DNA of 30,750 nucleotides from a virus. A program made the position numbers and the translations under genes. The DNA lies in the UHGV virus genome UHGV-1468954; one strand, given 5' to 3'. This document shows, in pieces, positions 14,095-28,755 of this stretch. A model generated the notes under the pieces. That model was not told the origin of the DNA. It made no database searches and saw nothing but the letters and a program-made list of their open reading frames with translations. Position 1 is the stretch's first letter; each line of letters begins with the position of its first letter.

Positions 14095-15507
14095 TTACCA
14101 ACCGGAGGATGAGGGAACGTATATTTCTGTTTCTTCGCGGACCAATGCCGGGCAATGCATACACATCATCAGCGCATCAGCCAGGTTAGGAGATGGAATA
14201 CCGAGCTTCTGCTTCATTTCGACCTTAGTCATAAGCTCCAGCTTCCCGTTATTATTGAATTTGCGCTGAATCTGCGTCAGTTCTGCAAACAGCTTCTCCA
14301 GCATCTTCTCGCCTATCGCTTCTTTGTCGAAACTCAGCATGTCGTCGGGGTCTGCATACTCACCGTGAACAACCGCCCGATATGTCAGATACAGCCTGTC
14401 AGCCAGCGCGTAATAGAATTGTGCTCGCTTATTGCGGAACACATCGCCAATAGTGCGAACGTTGTCACCCTGTACGACTTCATCAGCCCATGCTCCGGCT
14501 TGATACGGTGCATCTTCATCGAATGGCGATTCGCTGCCCTTGAACATCGTGGCGGTGATTTTCTTGCCGGAAAACGCTTCCGTTGTCTGTCTGCGTAGCC
14601 CGGCACCAACACCATCACCATCCCACAGGTAATGGTCAGCGCCGTCTTCAATCGCCAGCGAAGTAGCCCAGTCAGCACCCTCGTTGATGTCCATCAGCAG
14701 ACCTTCGGCAATGCGCTTAACTACCGAACCGTGACGCGATGCATAACCTTTAGCATCTGGCCCTGTATCTGATGGGTCATGCGCAGAGACAACAGCGCCT
14801 TTCGCTTTCCATCCGAGTTTCTTGTGCGCATCGGTTGCGGCTTCAAGCCATTCACGTTTGATAATTGCCATATCACTTGCGCTCACTGGCTCACCAAGCC
14901 AGATGTGACGATACAGTGTCGGATTTCTGCGTTTACACTCTTCCATCTCCAGACGGAGAACTTCAGGAAAGTGCGGGTTGTCGGTGTAGTTCACCGTCAA
15001 CAGGCAAATATCATCAGGAGGATTTACGACGAATCGCTGATAGGTATCGTCGAGTATGTTCTTCGGGTTAAAGCTCACCCATATTTCAGAGAACGGCTTA
15101 CGGATGGTTGGTATCAGGATATCCCATGATTCCTTCGTTACCGCTTCCGCTTCTTCCACCCAGCAGATATCAATACCTTCGAGCGATTTAATCTTCGTCG
15201 GGTTGTTTTTGATGCCGTAGAACATGAATTCAGCATTCGTTCCGAGATGACGAATCATGGAACGCTGAATTTCAAACTCAGCCGTATACCCTTCACGCTC
15301 TATGGTGTCTTCAAGCAGCCGGATTACCGAATCGCTGATACTGTTTTGCAGTTCACGAGCGCAGAGAATACGCACTGGCTGCCGACGCGCCGCTTCAACA
15401 AGCAGTCTCGCAATTGCCCATGATTTACCGCTACCTCGACCGCCTTTGGCGACTTTGTAGCGATGCGCCTCAATGAACGGTTCAAAGATAGGATTAATCG
15501 AGGTCAT
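14095..15507 (-). CDS. Terminase large subunit
   Basis: 470 aa; Walker A VAKGGRGSGKS; followed directly by the portal gene. Confidence 0.85.
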   Translation of the reverse strand: MTSINPIFEPFIEAHRYKVAKGGRGSGKSWAIARLLVEAARRQPVRILCARELQNSISDSVIRLLEDTIEREGYTAEFEIQRSMIRHLGTNAEFMFYGIKNNPTKIKSLEGIDICWVEEAEAVTKESWDILIPTIRKPFSEIWVSFNPKNILDDTYQRFVVNPPDDICLLTVNYTDNPHFPEVLRLEMEECKRRNPTLYRHIWLGEPVSASDMAIIKREWLEAATDAHKKLGWKAKGAVVSAHDPSDTGPDAKGYASRHGSVVKRIAEGLLMDINEGADWATSLAIEDGADHYLWDGDGVGAGLRRQTTEAFSGKKITATMFKGSESPFDEDAPYQAGAWADEVVQGDNVRTIGDVFRNKRAQFYYALADRLYLTYRAVVHGEYADPDDMLSFDKEAIGEKMLEKLFAELTQIQRKFNNNGKLELMTKVEMKQKLGIPSPNLADALMMCMHCPALVREETEIYVPSSSGW

Positions 15508-15944
15508 TTTCCGAATAGAGTACTCATCGGTGATGTTTCAATCTGGATTGCGCCGCCGTCTTTGCCTGTTAGCTCGTGATCAACCTTGTCGCGCCATTTA
15601 TCCTTCTGTCGGTTCTTAAGCCAGAAGATGGCAGCTGTTGTATCAGGCGGGTAATACTTCTCAAGAGGAGTTTCGACAATTCTGTTTTCAATAACACGAA
15701 TATCGATGTCTGGAGCCACGAAGCCCATAGCGCGTTGATAAAGACGGTCACTAACTTCTGCATCAGCGACGGCCTTACCCTTTTTTATGGACTCCGAAAA
15801 CTCAGGATAATCAAGCTTCCACTTGTTAATAGTTGACTCACTGACTTCGAAGAAATCAGCAAGCTCTGCATCGGTGTAGCCCAGCAAGCACAGTTTGCGT
15901 GCCTGTTCGGCATACGCCTCTTGATACTTTGTTGGGCGCGCCAT
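15504..15944 (-). CDS. Terminase small subunit
   Basis: 146 aa; HTH-like N-terminus; immediately upstream of TerL with a 4-nt overlap. Confidence 0.7.
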   Translation of the reverse strand: MARPTKYQEAYAEQARKLCLLGYTDAELADFFEVSESTINKWKLDYPEFSESIKKGKAVADAEVSDRLYQRAMGFVAPDIDIRVIENRIVETPLEKYYPPDTTAAIFWLKNRQKDKWRDKVDHELTGKDGGAIQIETSPMSTLFGK

Positions 15945-15946
15945 GT

Positions 15947-16189
15947 TTATGCTCCGGTGGTGAACAGGTATAACGCTTCCTTCGATTTACGCACCGCTTC
16001 GATAGTGCGGGTAGTGATATCTGAATTAGCGCCGCCTGACTGGAAGTGAATTTTGAATAGCTCAAGCTTCAGTTCGTCAGTGCCAATGAACTGAAATGCT
16101 TCCTCTGCGGCTGCGTTCTGGTTCATGACCAGCTTGTAAATCTCTAACTGGAATTTCTGTTCTTCAGTCATGGGAATAATCTCTGCCAT
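15947..16189 (-). CDS. Hypothetical protein (80 aa), P22 orf80-like position
   Basis: Between the Rha-like gene and TerS; size and position match the P22 orf80 slot. Confidence 0.45.
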   Translation of the reverse strand: MAEIIPMTEEQKFQLEIYKLVMNQNAAAEEAFQFIGTDELKLELFKIHFQSGGANSDITTRTIEAVRKSKEALYLFTTGA

Positions 16190-16416
16190 TGTTGGCTCCG
16201 TTTATCCGTTAAAAGGGATATCAGTTAAGTTATCCCGTGTAGGGTATAAGCCATTGTCGAGACCACTCATTGAATGGTCTCTGCAATAACCGATGTCTTT
16301 CCATCAGTACGCCACCACAAAGAATCTTTTTTGCCATAAGGCAGGAGGTTCATCTTTCAGTGGCTGCCAGTGTTATTTCCCCACTTTCTGGCTTGGGTTG
16401 TTTCGCTGTACTGCCG

Positions 16417-17028
16417 TTAATTGGTGAGTCCGGGGATTACGGTTTGCCCGTGCTGTTCAAGGCGTTCAATTCTCGCCAGTAGCTGAGGCTTCTTAATTTT
16501 TCCCCAGCGATTAAGCAGGCGGCCTGACATGCTGGCAACATCCTTCTCTTTCATGTACTCCAGCATTACGGCATTTCTCTCTTCTTCAAATTGACGATGA
16601 CCAACCTGAAGCATGGCGTACATCCAGTTGAATGCGTTGATGTAAGCAATTTTGATACGCATTGCTTCTTTTTTGGTGTAGGACATAACCAAAAGCATCA
16701 ACCCATCCTTGCGGAGACGGTAGAATTTTTGCGGCTTACCATTCTGTAACTCATTGTTTTTATAGCAAAGCTCAAAGTTGAGCTTTGTATCAAACTCAGG
16801 AGGGCAAGCTTCTATGGTTCGTTCAATGTCACGAACCACGTTCTTCGGCAGCTTTCCAAATGCTTTTGCCACCATAAAAGAATCTGTAACCGGATCGTTG
16901 TTTGCTACAAAAATTAGGTCTCTGAAATCTATATCGTTAACAACGGTTGGGTAGTTCATTGCGTCTTTACCTTTTAGAAAGATGAGCCTGTTCGCACAGA
17001 AAAGCCGCCCCGAGATGGTCGCCACCAT
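16417..17028 (-). CDS. Rha-family phage regulatory protein (P22 orf201-like position)
   Basis: 203 aa (alternative start at 16959); N-terminal motif ...PVTDSFMVAKAFGKLPKNVVRDIERTIE is typical of the Phage_pRha family. Confidence 0.6.
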   Translation of the reverse strand: MVATISGRLFCANRLIFLKGKDAMNYPTVVNDIDFRDLIFVANNDPVTDSFMVAKAFGKLPKNVVRDIERTIEACPPEFDTKLNFELCYKNNELQNGKPQKFYRLRKDGLMLLVMSYTKKEAMRIKIAYINAFNWMYAMLQVGHRQFEEERNAVMLEYMKEKDVASMSGRLLNRWGKIKKPQLLARIERLEQHGQTVIPGLTN

Positions 17029-17104
17029 ATACGGCAGTTCTCAGGCTCAGCTTTCTGAAAGACTCGGGATTGTTACGCGCTGCGATGCGCGGTTTACTGC
17101 AGAT

Positions 17105-17132
17105 ATAAAAAAGCCCCGCGAATGCGAGGCTA
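17105..17132 (-). terminator. Intrinsic terminator downstream of Rz/Rz1
   Basis: Minus strand reads AGCCTCGC-ATTC-GCGGGGCT followed by TTTTTT. Confidence 0.55.
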
Positions 17133-17304
17133 AATCCTGGTATTTGTAATGACTGGCTCTTATCTCAACGCAGCCCCTTACCGCGCGCCAGATGCTCAAT
17201 ATCAAGCATCAGCAATGAGATGTTTAATCTGGATTCACTCCAGAAGTGATCACCACCCTGTCTACAGAGCCAGATGTGAAGGATGATGAGTAAAATTATC
17301 GCTA

Positions 17305-17742
17305 TCATCGAAGGCATTGCGTCCTGATGTACTCCTGCAGGTAGTTAACCTGCGCGGTTATCCTGTCGATTCCACTTCGGAGACGGTAATAATTGAGTTC
17401 AGCATCTGCTGTAAGTCTTGGGTTTTCTCCATCGCCCATGCTGCTGGCTCCGGTCGTTGACTTTGCACAGGTGGCGGCGACTTGCAGGCGCTTACGCCCA
17501 GCAGAAACATCAGCACGGAGACTTTCGATAGTCGCGTTAGCATCAGCAAGCTCCTTTGTGTATCTTGCGTCGAGTTCTGCTACATCACGTTGACGCTTCC
17601 GCATATCAGCGATGATGGATGTGGCTTTATCGCGCTGCTCTTTGTAGGCGATTGCATTATCACGGTAATGATTAACAGCCCATGACAGGCAGACGATGAT
17701 GCAAATAATCAGAGCGGAGATAATCGCGGTGACTCTGCTCAT
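17305..17742 (-). CDS. Rz: Rz spanin (i-spanin); apparent chimera
   Basis: 145 aa; the first ~33 residues ([31 protein letters not shown]) are lambda-Rz-like, the rest diverges; 145 aa is the size of P22 gene 15. Confidence 0.85.
17358..17549 (-). CDS. Rz1: Rz1 outer-membrane lipoprotein (o-spanin), embedded in Rz in the +1 frame
   Basis: 63 aa; signal peptide plus lipobox ...LLGVSAC followed by the proline-rich [13 protein letters not shown]. Confidence 0.75.
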
Positions 17743-18215
17743 ACCTCAATCTCTCTGACCGTTCCGCCAGCCTCTTTGAATTTTGCAATCAGGTTGTCAG
17801 CCTTATGCTCGAACTGACCATAACCAGCCCCCGGAAGTGAAGCCCAGATATTGCTGCAACGGTCGATTGCCTGACGAATATCACCGCGATCAATCATCGG
17901 TAAAGCGCCACGCTCTTTAATCTGTTGCAGTGCCACAGCGTCCTGGCTTTTCGGAGAGAAGTCTTTCAGGCCAAGCTGCTTACGATAGGCATCCCACCAA
18001 CGGGAAAGAAGCTGGTAACGTCCGGCTGCTGTTGATTTGAGTTTGGGGTTTAGCGTGACAAGTTTGCGAGGGTGATCGGAGTAATCAGTGAATAGCTCTC
18101 CGCCTACAATGACGTCATAACCATGATTTCTGGTTTTCTGACGTCCGTTATCAGTTCCCTCTGACCACGCCAGCATATCGAGGAACGCCTTACGTTGATT
18201 ATTGATTTCCACCAT
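17739..18215 (-). CDS. R: Endolysin (lytic transglycosylase), lambda R
   Basis: 158 aa; [62 protein letters not shown]... is near-identical to lambda R (memory). Confidence 0.9.
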
Positions 18216-18522
18216 CTTCTACTCCGGCTTTTTTAGCAGCGAAGCGTTTGATAAGCGAACCAATCGAGTCAGTACCGATGTAGCCGATAAACACGCTCGT
18301 TATATAAGCGAGATTGCTACTTAGTCCGGCGAAGTCGAGAAGGTCACGAATGAACCAGGCGATAATGGCGCACATCGTTGCGTCGATTACTGTTTTTGTA
18401 AACGCACCGCCATTATATCTGCCGCGAAGGTACGCCATTGCAAACGCAAGGATTGCCCCGATGCCTTGTTCCTTTGCCGCGAGAATGGCGGCTAACAGGT
18501 CATGTTTTTCTGGCATCTTCAT
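18199..18522 (-). CDS. S: Holin/antiholin, lambda S
   Basis: 107 aa; [39 protein letters not shown]... matches lambda S, including the dual-start Met1-Lys2-Met3. Confidence 0.9.
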
Positions 18523-18811
18523 GTCTTACCCCCAATAAGGGGATTTGCTCTATTTAATTAGGAATAAGGTCGATTACTGATAGAACAAATCCAGGCTACT
18601 GTGTTTAGTAATCAGATTTGTTCGTGACCGATATGCACGGGCAAAACGGCAGGAGGTTGTTAGCGCAACCTCATGCCACCCGCTTTCACGAAGCCAGCCA
18701 TTGAGCTGGTTTTCTTTTATGCAAAGCACACCGCACCGTAGCCACAGCGGATAAGGTGATTATTTTGGTCTGTCTGGTATTTGGTTTGATGTGCTTTCAG
18801 AAAGGCCGTGC

Positions 18812-18850
18812 TTAAAACGCAAAAAGCCCCGAGCTATTAACTCAGGGCTT
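18812..18850 (-). terminator. Hairpin terminator in the late leader (tR'-like)
   Basis: Minus strand reads AAAGCCCTGAG-TTAATAG-CTCGGGGCTTTTTGCGTTTT, about 60 nt downstream of the pR'-like promoter. A second hairpin plus T-run lies near 18640-18676. Confidence 0.5.
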
Positions 18851-18884
18851 TATTTAACGAGTGCATTTATCCATCGTTGAGTCA

Positions 18885-18913
18885 AATTTACCCAACTTTA
18901 TTCAAAAAGTCAA
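18885..18913 (-). promoter_or_regulatory. Late promoter pR' (Q-dependent antitermination site region)
   Basis: Minus strand reads TTGACT-17 nt-TAAATT, just downstream of the Q stop. Confidence 0.6.
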
Positions 18914-18955
18914 TATCATGCCGTTAATATGTTGCCATCCGTGGCAATCATGCTG

Positions 18956-19579
18956 CTAACGTGTGACCGCATTCAAAATGTTGTCTGCGATTGACTCTTC
19001 TTTGTGGCATTGCACCACCAGAGCGTCATACAGCGGCTTAACAGTGCGTGACCAGGTGGGTTGAGTAAGATTTGGGATTAGCATCGTTACAGCGCGATAT
19101 GCGGCGCTTGCTGGCATCCTTGAATAGCCGACGCCTTTGCATCTTCCGCATTCTTTCTCAACAACTCTCCCCCACAGTTCTGTTTTGGCTATATCAACCG
19201 CACGGCCTGTACCGTGGCAATCTCTGCATCTTGCGCCCGGCGTCGCGGCACTACGGCAATAATCCGCATAAGCGAATGTTGCGAGCACTTGCAGTACCTT
19301 TGCCTTAGTATTTCCTTCGAGCTTTGCCACACCACGGTATTTCCCCGATACCTTGTGTGCAAATTGCATCAGATAGTTGATAGCCTTTTGTTTGTCGTTC
19401 TGGCTGAGTTCATGCTTACCGCAGAATGCAGCCATTCCGAATCCGGCTTGTGATTGCGCCATCCCCATAGCAGCCATCACATCAGTACCGGAAAGAGAGT
19501 CAGAAGCCGTAGCCCGTGGTGAGTCGCTCATCATCGGGCTTTTTGGCGAATGAAATTTAGCTACGCTTTCGAGTCTCAT
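18956..19579 (-). CDS. Q: Late antiterminator Q
   Basis: 207 aa; MRLESVAKFHSPKSPMMSDSPRATASDSLSGTDVMAAMGMAQSQAGFG... matches lambda Q (memory). Confidence 0.9.
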   Translation of the reverse strand: MRLESVAKFHSPKSPMMSDSPRATASDSLSGTDVMAAMGMAQSQAGFGMAAFCGKHELSQNDKQKAINYLMQFAHKVSGKYRGVAKLEGNTKAKVLQVLATFAYADYCRSAATPGARCRDCHGTGRAVDIAKTELWGRVVEKECGRCKGVGYSRMPASAAYRAVTMLIPNLTQPTWSRTVKPLYDALVVQCHKEESIADNILNAVTR

Positions 19580-19764
19580 GGCCTTCCCCTTTTGCCCTGT
19601 TTGACCATCAGGACGCCGTTAACTATTACGTGACGCTCGCCTTTGCTGTCTCGGTTGTACTTGAGCACTGTTCCTCTTGCGCAGGAAAGCATCCTCGCCA
19701 CTTCGGTCTGATTGCCTCGTGTCTGGATAAGAAGCTCTGGTATCGTTTGAATTGTGGCGTTCAT
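19576..19764 (-). CDS. ninH: NinH-like protein
   Basis: 62 aa; ...GNQTEVARMLSCARGTVLKY...VNGVLMV resembles lambda NinH; immediately upstream of Q. Confidence 0.65.
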   Translation of the reverse strand: MNATIQTIPELLIQTRGNQTEVARMLSCARGTVLKYNRDSKGERHVIVNGVLMVKQGKRGRP

Positions 19765-20123
19765 GCGTTCTCCAGTTCGGTGATTTTTATTCCAAGCCGC
19801 CCGCCTGGTACTTTCACACCACGAATTACGCGAATGTCATCGAATTGCTCGTCGTCTTCCGCAAATCCGGCGTGGATAAGTGAGTCGAGTAAACCTTTCA
19901 GGATGTTATCGAGGTCGCGGCGGCGGGAGTCTGGAACGTCTGCGATGACTTTGATGCGGAGTCGTGATTTGGTGAAAATGTCTAACTTGAGTTGGCGGAT
20001 GATTTGCTGAACGTCTTTTCGGTATTTCTGGCCTTTATCGCTGATGTAGTATTGGCTTCCCCGTCTTCGCCAGTAGGTGTTCACCGACGGCGGGTATGGA
20101 AGCACAAACTGATATTCGTTCAT
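19761..20123 (-). CDS. rusA: RusA-family Holliday junction resolvase
   Basis: 120 aa; ...DVPDSRRRDLDNILKGLLDSLIHAGF...GGRLGIKITE... has the RusA catalytic-region pattern. Confidence 0.8.
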   Translation of the reverse strand: MNEYQFVLPYPPSVNTYWRRRGSQYYISDKGQKYRKDVQQIIRQLKLDIFTKSRLRIKVIADVPDSRRRDLDNILKGLLDSLIHAGFAEDDEQFDDIRVIRGVKVPGGRLGIKITELENA

Positions 20124-20410
20124 GACTTAATCTTCCCCTCCTTCAGCAGTATCGCCTGCGTCCTGATCACGCCTTCGAGGTGGTAAAGTCTGGCGTCTTT
20201 GTTGTCGAGATTATGGGTGCGTCGGTCGATTTCATCGTGACACGCGCTACAAGCCCATGCGCCGATCAGGTCGTCAGGCTTCATTCCCGTTCCGCAAATT
20301 CCAGCCATCCGGTAATGTGCCAGAACTGTAGTTTCAGGATTACCATTGCATACGCCGTAAATACGTACCTGGCATTCTCTGCCGCGCGCTTCTTTGCGTA
20401 GGTTAGCCAT
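20120..20410 (-). CDS. YbcO-like (DUF1364) nin-region protein
   Basis: 96 aa; MANLRKEARGRECQVRIYGVCNGNPETTVLAHYRMAGICGTGMKPDDLIGAWACSACHDEIDRRTH... resembles DLP12 YbcO (memory). Confidence 0.6.
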   Translation of the reverse strand: MANLRKEARGRECQVRIYGVCNGNPETTVLAHYRMAGICGTGMKPDDLIGAWACSACHDEIDRRTHNLDNKDARLYHLEGVIRTQAILLKEGKIKS

Positions 20411-21132
20411 TAAGCAGCCTCCCCTGTTACTTTCAGCATTCCGTTATCGAGCAGCTTTCTGGTCAGCCACTGTTGACCACGCCCGGTGATTTTTGTGGTG
20501 AACGATATCTGTATTCCGTGATTTGTGTTGACCGCTGTTTCTTTCACTGTGAAATAGCCGCGATCCATATATTCCTGCATTGGCACATTGCGCCGGGAAC
20601 CTGAAGCAATAAGGATTTTGTGATCGCGCATCCACGCAAACAGTTTGTTTGGACCAATACCGACAACCTTTGCAAAGTTTCCAATCAAAATTCCGCTGGA
20701 CTCGCCAACGCGATCGGCAAACTCAACTTTAGGTGCGGCAATTGCGAGCTGGTTTTCCAGTTGCATTTTCTGCTCAGCAAGATCAGCAGCAAGGCGCAAC
20801 GCTTCTGGTAGCGTTTTGGGGATATTAACCGCGGTTTCTTCAAGCTCTCGCCAACGGTCAACAAGACGAGCGGTGAATTCCGGCGACAACTGGGCTACAA
20901 CGACAATACTGTCTCGCTTACCTTGTTCGCCCTCAAAAACGTAAGCCTCTACGCCACGAAGTAATCCTAAGTTATTGATTTTTTCGAAAACCACCATTGG
21001 GGGATTTCGGATCACACCTCGAGCCGCCAGTCGTTCAATAGATTGTTTCACCTTGTCATGACGCTTACCCACCAACTCAGCGATTTCAATGCTTGTCATT
21101 TTGATGGCATTGCCATTTATTAACTCATTCAT
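20410..21132 (-). CDS. Antirepressor-like protein with Rha-type N-terminus (Roi/KilAC-like)
   Basis: 240 aa; N-terminus IKMTSIEIAELVGKRHDKVKQSIERL fits the Phage_pRha pattern; inserted in the nin region between ninF and ybcO-like. Confidence 0.55.
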   Translation of the reverse strand: MNELINGNAIKMTSIEIAELVGKRHDKVKQSIERLAARGVIRNPPMVVFEKINNLGLLRGVEAYVFEGEQGKRDSIVVVAQLSPEFTARLVDRWRELEETAVNIPKTLPEALRLAADLAEQKMQLENQLAIAAPKVEFADRVGESSGILIGNFAKVVGIGPNKLFAWMRDHKILIASGSRRNVPMQEYMDRGYFTVKETAVNTNHGIQISFTTKITGRGQQWLTRKLLDNGMLKVTGEAA

Positions 21133-25788: not shown

Positions 25789-26505
<717 letters not shown>

Positions 26506-26571
26506 TATATGTGAAATGCATATATTGATATAAATGCAGCAATATCAAATAGTTAAAAGGTTATATTTTTA

Positions 26572-26952
26572 ATGAATGATCTTGATAAGAAAAAGTACGA
26601 CCAAGTTATTGATTCTGTGAACTTCGCCCTTAGATCGTTGTCAGAGTTATTCGAAGCCCATGGAATGCATGGGATGTATGATCTAACGAATCCAAGCCTT
26701 GATGAGCTAAAATTAGTGTTTACAAGGATGAAAAACGGAGTTGACTCTATTGCTCAAAGCTTTGAGCATATGGTAGAGACAGCAAAGGATATGGATGCCG
26801 CAAGTGCAAGCATAAATGTTATGAACATCAAGCAAGGATTGATGTATGCTGAATCACTATTGCTTGCTGTAGAGAAATTAGACTATGATAAATGTGTGGA
26901 AGCAAATACGCAGATAAAAACCCACGATCTTCCACCAACCCAATGGCCTTAA
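26572..26952 (+). CDS. Hypothetical protein (126 aa) at the rexA/rexB position downstream of cI
   Basis: Same strand as cI, 66 bp downstream after an AT-rich spacer; visibly AT-rich coding sequence; predicted soluble and helical; no family recognised. Confidence 0.6.
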   Translation: MNDLDKKKYDQVIDSVNFALRSLSELFEAHGMHGMYDLTNPSLDELKLVFTRMKNGVDSIAQSFEHMVETAKDMDAASASINVMNIKQGLMYAESLLLAVEKLDYDKCVEANTQIKTHDLPPTQWP

Positions 26953-27160: not shown

Positions 27161-27316
27161 GCCTCACGATCGCCCCACCTAAAAACACATAACCAATTGT
27201 ATTTATTTGAAAATTAATAGATACAACTCACTAAACATCGCAATTCAGATCTCTCGATCACCTTCCCAATCCACACAACCCTGCAAAAAATAAATCTATA
27301 TAAAAAACATACAGAT

Positions 27317-27379
27317 AACCATCTGCGGTGATAAATTATCTCTGGCGGTGTTGACACACATACCACTAGCGGTGATACT
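27317..27379 (+). promoter_or_regulatory. Left operator oL3-oL2-oL1 and promoter pL
   Basis: oL3 27317-33 AACCATCTGCGGTGATA; oL2 27337-53 TATCTCTGGCGGTGTTG; oL1 27361-77 TACCACTAGCGGTGATA. pL is TTGACA (27351-56), 17 nt, GATACT (27374-79). Confidence 0.85.
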
Positions 27380-27425
27380 AAACACATCAGCAGGACGCTG
27401 GCAGCCAAACGGAACAGATTGGCAG

Positions 27426-27466
27426 GCTCTTTAACATTGATGGGATTGTCCCGCCGAAATGCGGGA
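27426..27466 (+). promoter_or_regulatory. nutL (boxA plus boxB) in the pL leader
   Basis: boxA GCTCTTTAACA (27426-36); boxB hairpin TCCCGC-CGAAAT-GCGGGA (27449-66). Confidence 0.6.
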
Positions 27467-27573
27467 ACCAAAGAGTAGTTGGCTTTGGGGTGACGTGAAG
27501 TGCAGCTGCACGACGGCAACCGGAAGATAAGCACCCGGCGCGTCACCGCCAAAGTCAATCATCGGAGGTCAAC

Positions 27574-28553: not shown

Positions 28554-28614
28554 ATGCATACCAATAACGCTTCACTCGAGGCGTTTTTCGTTATGTATAA
28601 ATAAGGAGCACACC

Positions 28615-28755
28615 ATGCAATATGCCATTGCAGGGTGTCCTGTTGCTGGCTGCCCTTCCGAATCTTTACTTGAACGAATCACACGTAAATTACGTGATGG
28701 ATGGAAACGCCTTATCGACATACTTAATCAGCCAGGAGTTCCCAAGAATGGATAA
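28615..28755 (+). CDS. cIII: CIII-like protein (46 aa, C-terminally shorter than lambda CIII)
   Basis: Internal start of track ORF 28510..28755 with an AAGGAG RBS; MQYAIAGCPVAGCPSESLLERITRKLRDGWKRLIDILNQPGVPKNG matches lambda CIII residues 1-46 (memory). Confidence 0.75.
   Translation: MQYAIAGCPVAGCPSESLLERITRKLRDGWKRLIDILNQPGVPKNG

Follow-up and report, generated by a model that had tools for sequence, protein, structure and literature searches.

The rha gene of phages phi80 and P22 (orf201 in P22) and the roi gene of phage HK022 both make lytic growth dependent on a host protein: rha is cited as blocking lytic growth in IHF-deficient hosts (citation in PMC4936722), and roi as inhibiting lytic growth in IHF mutants (citation in PMC3430580). 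A third regulator, the antirepressor Ant of the P22 immI region, is encoded between arc and gene 9 under the control of Mnt, Arc and sar. Here we describe rha and roi in the virus genome UHGV-1468954, analysed as one stretch of 30,750 nucleotides (the window), a P22-like (Lederbergvirus) E. coli prophage of the CUS-3/HK620/Gally type with its late genes on the minus strand, which holds an orphan mnt gene and no gene placed and controlled as P22 ant is. An earlier note on this DNA suggested that one of two Rha-family genes has taken over from the missing Ant under the control of the orphan Mnt. We consider it likely that the two are the standard rha and roi genes, lytic-stage regulators that are neither controlled by Mnt nor a replacement for Ant. 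Both are long-known genes and carry little weight as a discovery; their pairing, also with an orphan mnt, is already published, the five phage regulators of Gally, a prophage of E. coli LF82, being mnt, c2, c1, roi, and rha (PMC9928086). The useful outcomes are corrective, and concern the caution with which a database label should be read, a start of rha that probably lies 23 codons downstream, and a promoter in front of the tailspike gene that Mnt most likely guards.

Between 15500 and 21500 the window is 98% identical in DNA sequence to phage CUS-3, with HK620, Gally, N7, and Sf6 as further close relatives, and the region from 25.1 to 27.9 kilobases encodes a CI-type repressor (237 amino acids, 25792-26505), Cro, CII, and an N-like protein. 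Both genes in question lie on the minus strand, where the earlier note had placed them. The first, a 203-amino-acid open reading frame (ORF) at 16417-17028, is rha, with a Rha-type N-terminal domain followed by an ORF11CD3 domain. Residues 48-136 (16621-16887) match the Pfam family Phage_pRha (PF09669) with 76.6 bits against a cutoff of 29.9 (E 2.4e-21), and the protein matches the NCBIfam model TIGR02681, phage_pRha, with 84.4 bits against a cutoff of 45.95, so that it belongs to the family by the curated cutoffs of both models; it also matches PHROG 518, 'Rha-like transcriptional regulator'. Residues 148-199 (16432-16587) match ORF11CD3 (Pfam PF10549, 91 bits), and the Pfam search found no KilAC domain. 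In an AlphaFold2 model with a mean predicted local distance difference test score (pLDDT) of 78.7, a winged-helix-like domain at residues 30-115, in a helix-helix-wing arrangement with pLDDT around 90, precedes two helices, 120-165 and 169-194, that form a long hairpin spanning 120-194. The hairpin corresponds to ORF11CD3 and probably mediates oligomerisation.

The Rha protein is 100% identical to ECRS218_0024 of CUS-3 (annotated 'hypothetical protein') and to the 'Rha protein' of phage 720R6; with P22 Rha it shares 52% identity over the full length, and with Gally Rha 47%. In all four phages rha occupies one slot, flanked by Rz/Rz1 and the small terminase gene. The earlier note was right to place the gene between lysis and terminase functions: Rz lies at 17305-17742 and the DUF2560 and terminase genes at 15504-16189, giving rha the late-operon position that it has in P22 and phi80. 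The likeness to P22 extends to the two domains, the conserved leader, and a junction block downstream; the window differs in carrying another allele, exactly that of CUS-3 and 720R6.

A second difference concerns the 5' end of the gene. P22 rha is annotated from a GTG 23 codons upstream, whereas several observations on the window favor an internal ATG, the codon for M24 of the 203-residue ORF. M24 is invariant across 41 homologues and is their usual annotated start, database entries for the product are mostly 179-185 amino acids long, the AlphaFold2 model leaves residues 1-23 disordered (pLDDT below 50), and the 69 nucleotides upstream of M24 are part of a conserved non-coding leader in which relatives differ by 1-nucleotide, frameshifting indels. 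For these reasons the true start of rha is very probably the ATG at 16959, 23 codons inside the maximal ORF, and the coding sequence probably runs from 16417 to 16959 and encodes 180 amino acids. The reading frame from which the earlier note started is thus present, with a 5' end at 17028 that overshoots the likely start.

The second gene, at 20410-21132 in the nin region, encodes 240 amino acids and is roi, with a divergent Rha-type domain (residues 12-99, 20836-21099) and, at its C-terminal end, an ANT/KilAC domain (residues 126-228, 20449-20757). The KilAC match (Pfam PF03374) scores 113.9 bits against a cutoff of 25.3 and is shared by all 56 of 56 diverse relatives, which bears out the earlier description of the protein as antirepressor-like. 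Roi is 88% identical to HK022 Roi over 240 residues and 90-92% identical to the Roi proteins of CUS-3 (90%), HK620, N7, and Gally (91%), and the annotated roi genes of CUS-3, HK620, HK97, and HK022 are all recovered as sequence matches to the window gene. Position agrees with identity in assigning the gene to the HK022 type. The genes that flank it, ninF-like and ybcO-like, are those found in HK022, HK620, and CUS-3, and a location between ninF-like and ybcO-like or rusA genes is common to the roi genes of HK022, HK97, HK620, CUS-3, Gally, and Stx phages. The ATG of roi overlaps the stop codon of the ninF-like gene upstream (ATGAATGA), and its stop codon overlaps the start of the gene downstream (TAATG). 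These overlaps at both ends leave no room for a promoter of its own, and roi is, to judge from them, an internal and translationally coupled member of the nin operon.

Differences between the window Roi and HK022 Roi are very unevenly distributed. Nearly all fall in residues 22-62 (20950-21070), the presumed helix-turn-helix or recognition segment, and identity over the C-terminal 180 residues is about 99%; such a pattern would be expected if DNA specificity diversifies while the function of the KilAC half stays constant. HK022 Roi, which carries the GenBank note 'DNA binding protein', reportedly binds a site within its own gene beside an IHF site. An IHF-consensus match, AATCAATAACTTA, lies inside the window roi at 20968-20980 on the minus strand. 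The whole window holds three such matches against 1.7 expected by chance, and about 0.04 would be expected within a gene of the length of roi, which makes the match modest evidence; it fits the IHF site said to adjoin the Roi site in HK022, without proving equivalence. The other two matches, at 26543-26555 and 26602-26614, are near each other, directly downstream of cI and at the beginning of a 126-amino-acid moron gene.

Whether the two N-terminal domains belong together is a matter for profile methods. Roi residues 12-99 score 30.3 bits against Phage_pRha, only just above the cutoff of 29.9 (E 6.4e-7), the score of HK022 Roi, 25.2 bits, is short of that cutoff, and the TIGR02681 model does not match Roi. 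Among 56 diverse Roi relatives, however, which are 38-58% identical, 54 match Phage_pRha, the best with E 9e-18. Profile-profile alignment with hhalign pairs the Rha and Roi domains over 60 columns in the register of the Pfam model, with E 2.9e-5 and a probability of 74% when Roi is represented by diverse relatives; a shallow Roi alignment of sequences 91-98% identical gave only 3%. Five PHROG families match both proteins over the same profile columns. Pairwise BLASTP of Rha against Roi found no similarity (E 0.35), and the homology of the two domains is therefore one that only profiles detect. The Roi domain is best described, on the strength of these profiles, as a divergent member of the Rha type to which the marginal Pfam match is probably real. 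The C-terminal halves of the two proteins are unrelated, a sequence search of the PDB returned no relative of either, and a six-frame scan of the window with hidden Markov models found no third Rha-type domain. The earlier claim that a Rha-type motif occurs in both proteins therefore holds, strongly for the 203-residue ORF and marginally for Roi, and of the domains it named for annotation Phage_pRha is found in both and KilAC in Roi alone.

The proposal that one of these genes substitutes for Ant can be examined by asking where rha, roi, and ant occur. In a panel of nine P22-like genomes, the window and eight relatives, scored by tblastn, ant is present in P22, CUS-3 (which has two mnt genes), N7, and 611R6, and absent from the window, Gally, 720R6, HK620, and Sf6. 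CUS-3 (rha 100% identical, roi 90%), Gally, and the window carry both rha and roi, P22 and 720R6 only rha, N7 and HK620 only roi, and 611R6 and Sf6 neither. In this small panel rha and roi are each found in two of the four phages with ant and in three of the five genomes that lack it, and the two genes occur independently of ant, with no hint of compensation. Nor is there agreement in domains. P22 Ant consists of the domains P22_AR_N and P22_AR_C, and a Pfam search found neither in Rha or Roi and no domain common to Ant and either protein; what they share with Ant is only the general database label 'antirepressor'.

Control by Mnt would call for an operator, and the earlier note had pointed to the regions upstream of the two genes as the place to look for one. 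No such site is found there. Within three mismatches, the Mnt-operator palindrome AGACCACAGTGGTCT occurs only once in the 30.7-kilobase window, in the spacer between mnt and the tailspike gene. An exact LexA box (CTGT-N8-ACAG), the upstream mark of SOS-controlled antirepressors of the Gifsy, 186 Tum, and SPC32H types, is likewise absent from the window. Sites with one mismatch to that box number 17, against a mean of 11.2 in shuffled sequence (4 of 100 shuffles reach 17), and none of them is in a plausible position or has an AT-rich spacer, which leaves no credible LexA box near rha or roi. A scan with the sigma-70 consensus found no promoter-like site in the region upstream of rha. The gene would thus appear to be part of the Q-antiterminated late transcript, behind a conserved hairpin. 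By analogy with lambdoid gene order, both rha and roi are probably expressed only after CI has been inactivated, and proteins made after the loss of CI cannot trigger the induction of their own prophage.

The orphan mnt gene seems to have a target elsewhere. It lies at 752-1003 on the plus strand and encodes an 83-amino-acid protein that is 76% identical to P22 Mnt, 100% identical to the Mnt proteins of Gally and 720R6, and matched by PHROG families of the Arc/Mnt type. The tailspike gene (1-616) is on the opposite strand, with its ATG at 616. There is no arc or ant in the interval between the two genes, and tblastn with P22 Ant and CUS-3 Ant found nothing in the whole window, in agreement with the earlier statement that this Mnt is without its Ant. 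Alignment with the annotated Pant/Oarc/Omnt region of P22 identifies a homologue of the Pant promoter and the mnt operator at 674-724 on the minus strand. A -35-like TCGGCA (724-719; TTGACA in P22) and a -10-like TATATC (701-696; TATATT in P22) are separated by the same 17-nucleotide spacer as in P22, and the operator palindrome, AGACCAC-A-GTGGTCT at 688-674, is in the same place, with half-sites altered from GGTCCAC to AGACCAC. The promoter and operator lie about 60 nucleotides upstream of the tailspike ATG and are directed into the tailspike gene. Most likely, then, to judge from this alignment, a promoter derived from Pant reads into the tailspike gene and is still repressed by the orphan Mnt.

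Published work on Gally is in keeping with this. Gally and 720R6 have an identical layout in which mnt abuts the tailspike gene, and RNA sequencing of Gally found mnt and the tailspike gene co-induced in macrophages (PMC9928086), which fits a link between Mnt and a tailspike promoter; deletion of mnt from Gally left bacterial survival in macrophages unchanged (PMC9928086). Gally also resembles the window in lacking ant and in carrying roi and rha. It differs in its rha allele and in having a P22-type C2 repressor in place of the 237-residue CI, which is of another immunity type. An ant moron reduced to mnt and one unknown gene has been described for ST64T, ST104, and Para1 in the epsilon34 paper (PMC2629481). 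The ant-moron gene beside mnt in the window, at 1019-2062 on the minus strand, encodes 347 amino acids with a P63C domain at residues 224-311 (52.5 bits); no Pfam family matches the first 220 residues, and the protein has no PADLOC match. Phage 611R6 has a homologue alongside arc and ant. The P63C domain is a module of the network in which KilA-N and Rha domains are shuffled, being found also in gp73 of HK022.

The reading from which the earlier note set out, that Ant was lost and that the orphan Mnt came to control rha or roi as its substitute, has in its favor the presence of mnt without ant in the window and the fact that both genes carry domains seen in proteins called antirepressors. Against it stand the lack of any other operator copy within the mismatches allowed, the coexistence of both genes with ant in CUS-3 and of rha with ant in P22, the homologue of Pant and its operator that has been kept before the tailspike gene, and the existence of mnt-only ant morons as a known class (PMC2629481). 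Co-occurrence, domains, operators, expression context, and the retained Mnt target all fail to support it; we regard it as having next to no probability and, in view of these sequence tests, as refuted for practical purposes. Proteins with Rha or KilAC domains owe the database label 'antirepressor' to the domains they share, and it should not be taken to mean 'Ant substitute'.

If rha and roi are instead the standard lytic-stage genes, their products may be seen as two-module regulators of the KilA-N/Bro-N/Rha kind, assembled by phages through the shuffling of domains, with a head that binds DNA (Rha-N, KilA-N, Bro-N, or AntA/B) joined to one of several tails (KilAC, ORF11CD3, P63C). Both genes sit in cassette slots that are known to vary. 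The Rha-type winged helix would confer sequence-specific DNA binding on both proteins, presumably, and the C-terminal modules, ORF11CD3 in Rha and KilAC in Roi, would serve oligomerisation or contacts with partners. Roi would act in the delayed-early period, from the PR- and N-dependent nin operon, and Rha late, from the Q-dependent operon, both being made only once CI has been removed. Their most likely role would be to tune phage or host transcription, or both, during lytic growth in a manner that depends on host IHF.

A number of points weigh against this reading. DNA binding is said to be established only for HK022 Roi, and residues 22-62 differ from that protein, so the DNA target of the window Roi may differ as well. 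The winged-helix assignment appears to rest on sequence profiles and weak structural matches: no significant structural neighbor turned up when the Rha model was searched, and the Roi model, built from near-identical sequences only, has a pLDDT of 36. The nine-genome panel is too small for statistics, and since the promoter scan used the sigma-70 consensus only, a weak private rha promoter is possible. Finally, KilAC is found in Ant1 and Ant2, the antirepressors of P1 and P7 (PMC9043618).

This last point is one of several that speak for Roi, Rha, or both as true antirepressors, which would be made during lytic growth, would bind a CI-type repressor, either in trans against heteroimmune resident prophages or to lock in the induction of their own prophage, and would do so independently of Mnt. 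PHROG and NCBI label these families 'anti-repressor', a secondary source calls phi80 Rha an antirepressor (as cited in PMC4936722), and trans-acting antirepressors of Salmonella Gifsy prophages are known by citation. The labels, however, derive from shared domains and not from assays, and HK022 Roi is characterised as a DNA-binding protein in its GenBank note and in the title of the paper on it. Inducing antirepressors typically have a promoter under LexA or Mnt/Arc control, which is lacking from both genes, and neither protein has a domain in common with P22 Ant. In Gally, moreover, expression of roi and rha is unchanged in macrophages while other prophage genes respond (PMC9928086). On balance we think it improbable that either protein is an antirepressor in this sense.

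A further possibility starts from the KilAC half of Roi. AriS of a Listeria phage combines an AntA/B domain with a C-terminal KilAC, and shares this two-module design with Roi; it differs in its N-terminal domain and in its Gram-positive host, and it has an SOS-inhibiting activity that for Roi would be hypothetical. Roi could be a dual regulator of this kind, its Rha domain acting on phage genes and its KilAC domain damping the host SOS response, probably through RecA, and so coordinating co-resident prophages. The AriS study lists pRha plus KilAC among AriS-like architectures, and it reports that the Listeria KilAC domain alone inhibits SOS on overexpression and that the protein at its native level promotes the lytic cycle (PMC9043618). 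The KilAC domain of Roi is strong at 113.9 bits, and E. coli genomes often hold several copies of parts of the region (a median of two places and up to 14). The activity was shown, however, in Firmicutes only, with N-terminal domains of the AntA/B and Bro-N types, and on overexpression. Such a role, which would be compatible with that of a standard lytic-stage regulator and would add a specific host target to it, seems to us unlikely, if somewhat less so than antirepression.

The slot that rha occupies in the late operon has a structure of its own. As far as the ATG, a conserved non-coding leader (16960-17310, minus strand) keeps 92-100% identity in CUS-3, 720R6, Gally, and HK620, and the sequences diverge beyond that codon. 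The leader contains a terminator-like, GC-rich hairpin at 17112-17131, GCCTCGCATTCGCGGGGC followed by T6, and the ribosome-binding context AAAAGGTAAAGACGC-ATG. The same leader precedes either of two rha alleles or, in HK620, the KilA-N gene hkbK, and the point at which modules are exchanged is exactly the ATG. The slot holds Rha-N plus ORF11CD3 in the window, P22, CUS-3, 720R6, and Gally, KilA-N plus ORF11CD3 in HK620 (hkbK), and KilA-N plus P63C in HK022 (gp73). This hot-swap position between highly conserved junctions, which is like that of accessory cassettes, favors a view of rha and roi as moron-like competition or exclusion cassettes that serve mainly against other lambdoid phages and less to regulate their own, and both genes are cited as having been discovered as inhibitors of lambdoid phage growth. 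Yet neither is placed for expression from a repressed prophage, when exclusion would matter, a PADLOC scan of Rha, Roi, and the neighboring moron genes found no match to a defence family, and the inhibition phenotype was seen in IHF-deficient hosts only; we find exclusion as their main job very unlikely.

Two junction blocks follow just downstream of rha on the minus strand, block A at 16292-16425 and block B at 16190-16290. They are 92-99.6% identical in all nine panel phages, with or without rha, and the rha alleles beside them encode proteins of only 47-52% identity. In 157 phage records, including siphoviruses of the HK97/HK022 type, block A recurs with no less than 90% identity, mostly without annotation, and A and B are separated by additional genes in Sf6, 611R6, and Gally. 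An ATG in block A opens a 28-codon ORF in the window (MNLLPYGKKDSLWWRTDGK...) and is the annotated start of orf118 in phages L and ST64T. No Rfam family covers the leader or the blocks. Candidate functions for A and B are a recombination boundary, a translation-start cassette, and an RNA element.

Block B contains a palindrome at 16253-16287, with 17-nucleotide arms, that in the late transcript would form a hairpin of 10 + 8 base pairs and -24 kcal/mol. It is not an intrinsic terminator, because no run of T follows it. P22 holds a compensated version, GAGGCCA...TGGCCTC in place of GAGACCA...TGGTCTC, which suggests selection for pairing or for dyad symmetry, and P22 orf25 starts inside the palindrome. 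As a candidate for a second Mnt site the palindrome fails on several counts. It is found downstream of rha, its half-sites are spaced by 8 nucleotides and not 3, an 8-mer half-site match is expected by chance, the palindrome is conserved in HK620, which has no mnt, and the P22 version mismatches the operator of P22 itself.

A broader conjecture joins two of these strands, taking Roi as the enterobacterial counterpart of AriS and the rha slot as a dedicated landing pad for the swapping of heads. If both held, the Rha domain of Roi would bind together with IHF inside roi and tune nin and late expression, and the nearly invariant KilAC half would act on host RecA and SOS or on heterologous repressors, so that one induced prophage could coordinate or suppress the induction of the several other lambdoid prophages that are typical of E. 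coli genomes. The slot, defined by the leader and blocks A and B in at least 157 phages of podovirus and siphovirus lineages, would exchange Rha-N and KilA-N heads exactly at the start codon and join them to shared tails, ORF11CD3 or P63C. That the two should be true jointly we rate as doubtful, a little more so than the AriS-like role of Roi by itself.

The gene pair is not rare. At least 80% of the segment from roi to rha is present in 178 of 5,426 complete E. coli genomes (about 3%), with both genes annotated, as 'phage antirepressor KilAC domain-containing protein' and 'Rha family transcriptional regulator'. Proteins of the Roi type have more than 7,000 matches, about 6,900 representatives make up a diverse alignment of them, and one cluster is found on at least 1,000 contigs.

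Three small genes in the window occupy classic moron positions, at 2069-2533 (plus strand) beside a DNA-transfer gene, at 26572-26952 (plus strand) just downstream of cI, and at 27214-27558 (minus strand) between cI and N. None has a Pfam or PADLOC match, and their PHROG matches are only to families of unknown function; they are candidates for accessory or exclusion genes expressed from the prophage. In the early-left operon, a Lambda cIII thermoregulator RNA element (Rfam RF01804) is found at 28602-28660 on the plus strand, with 84 bits against a cutoff of 50.

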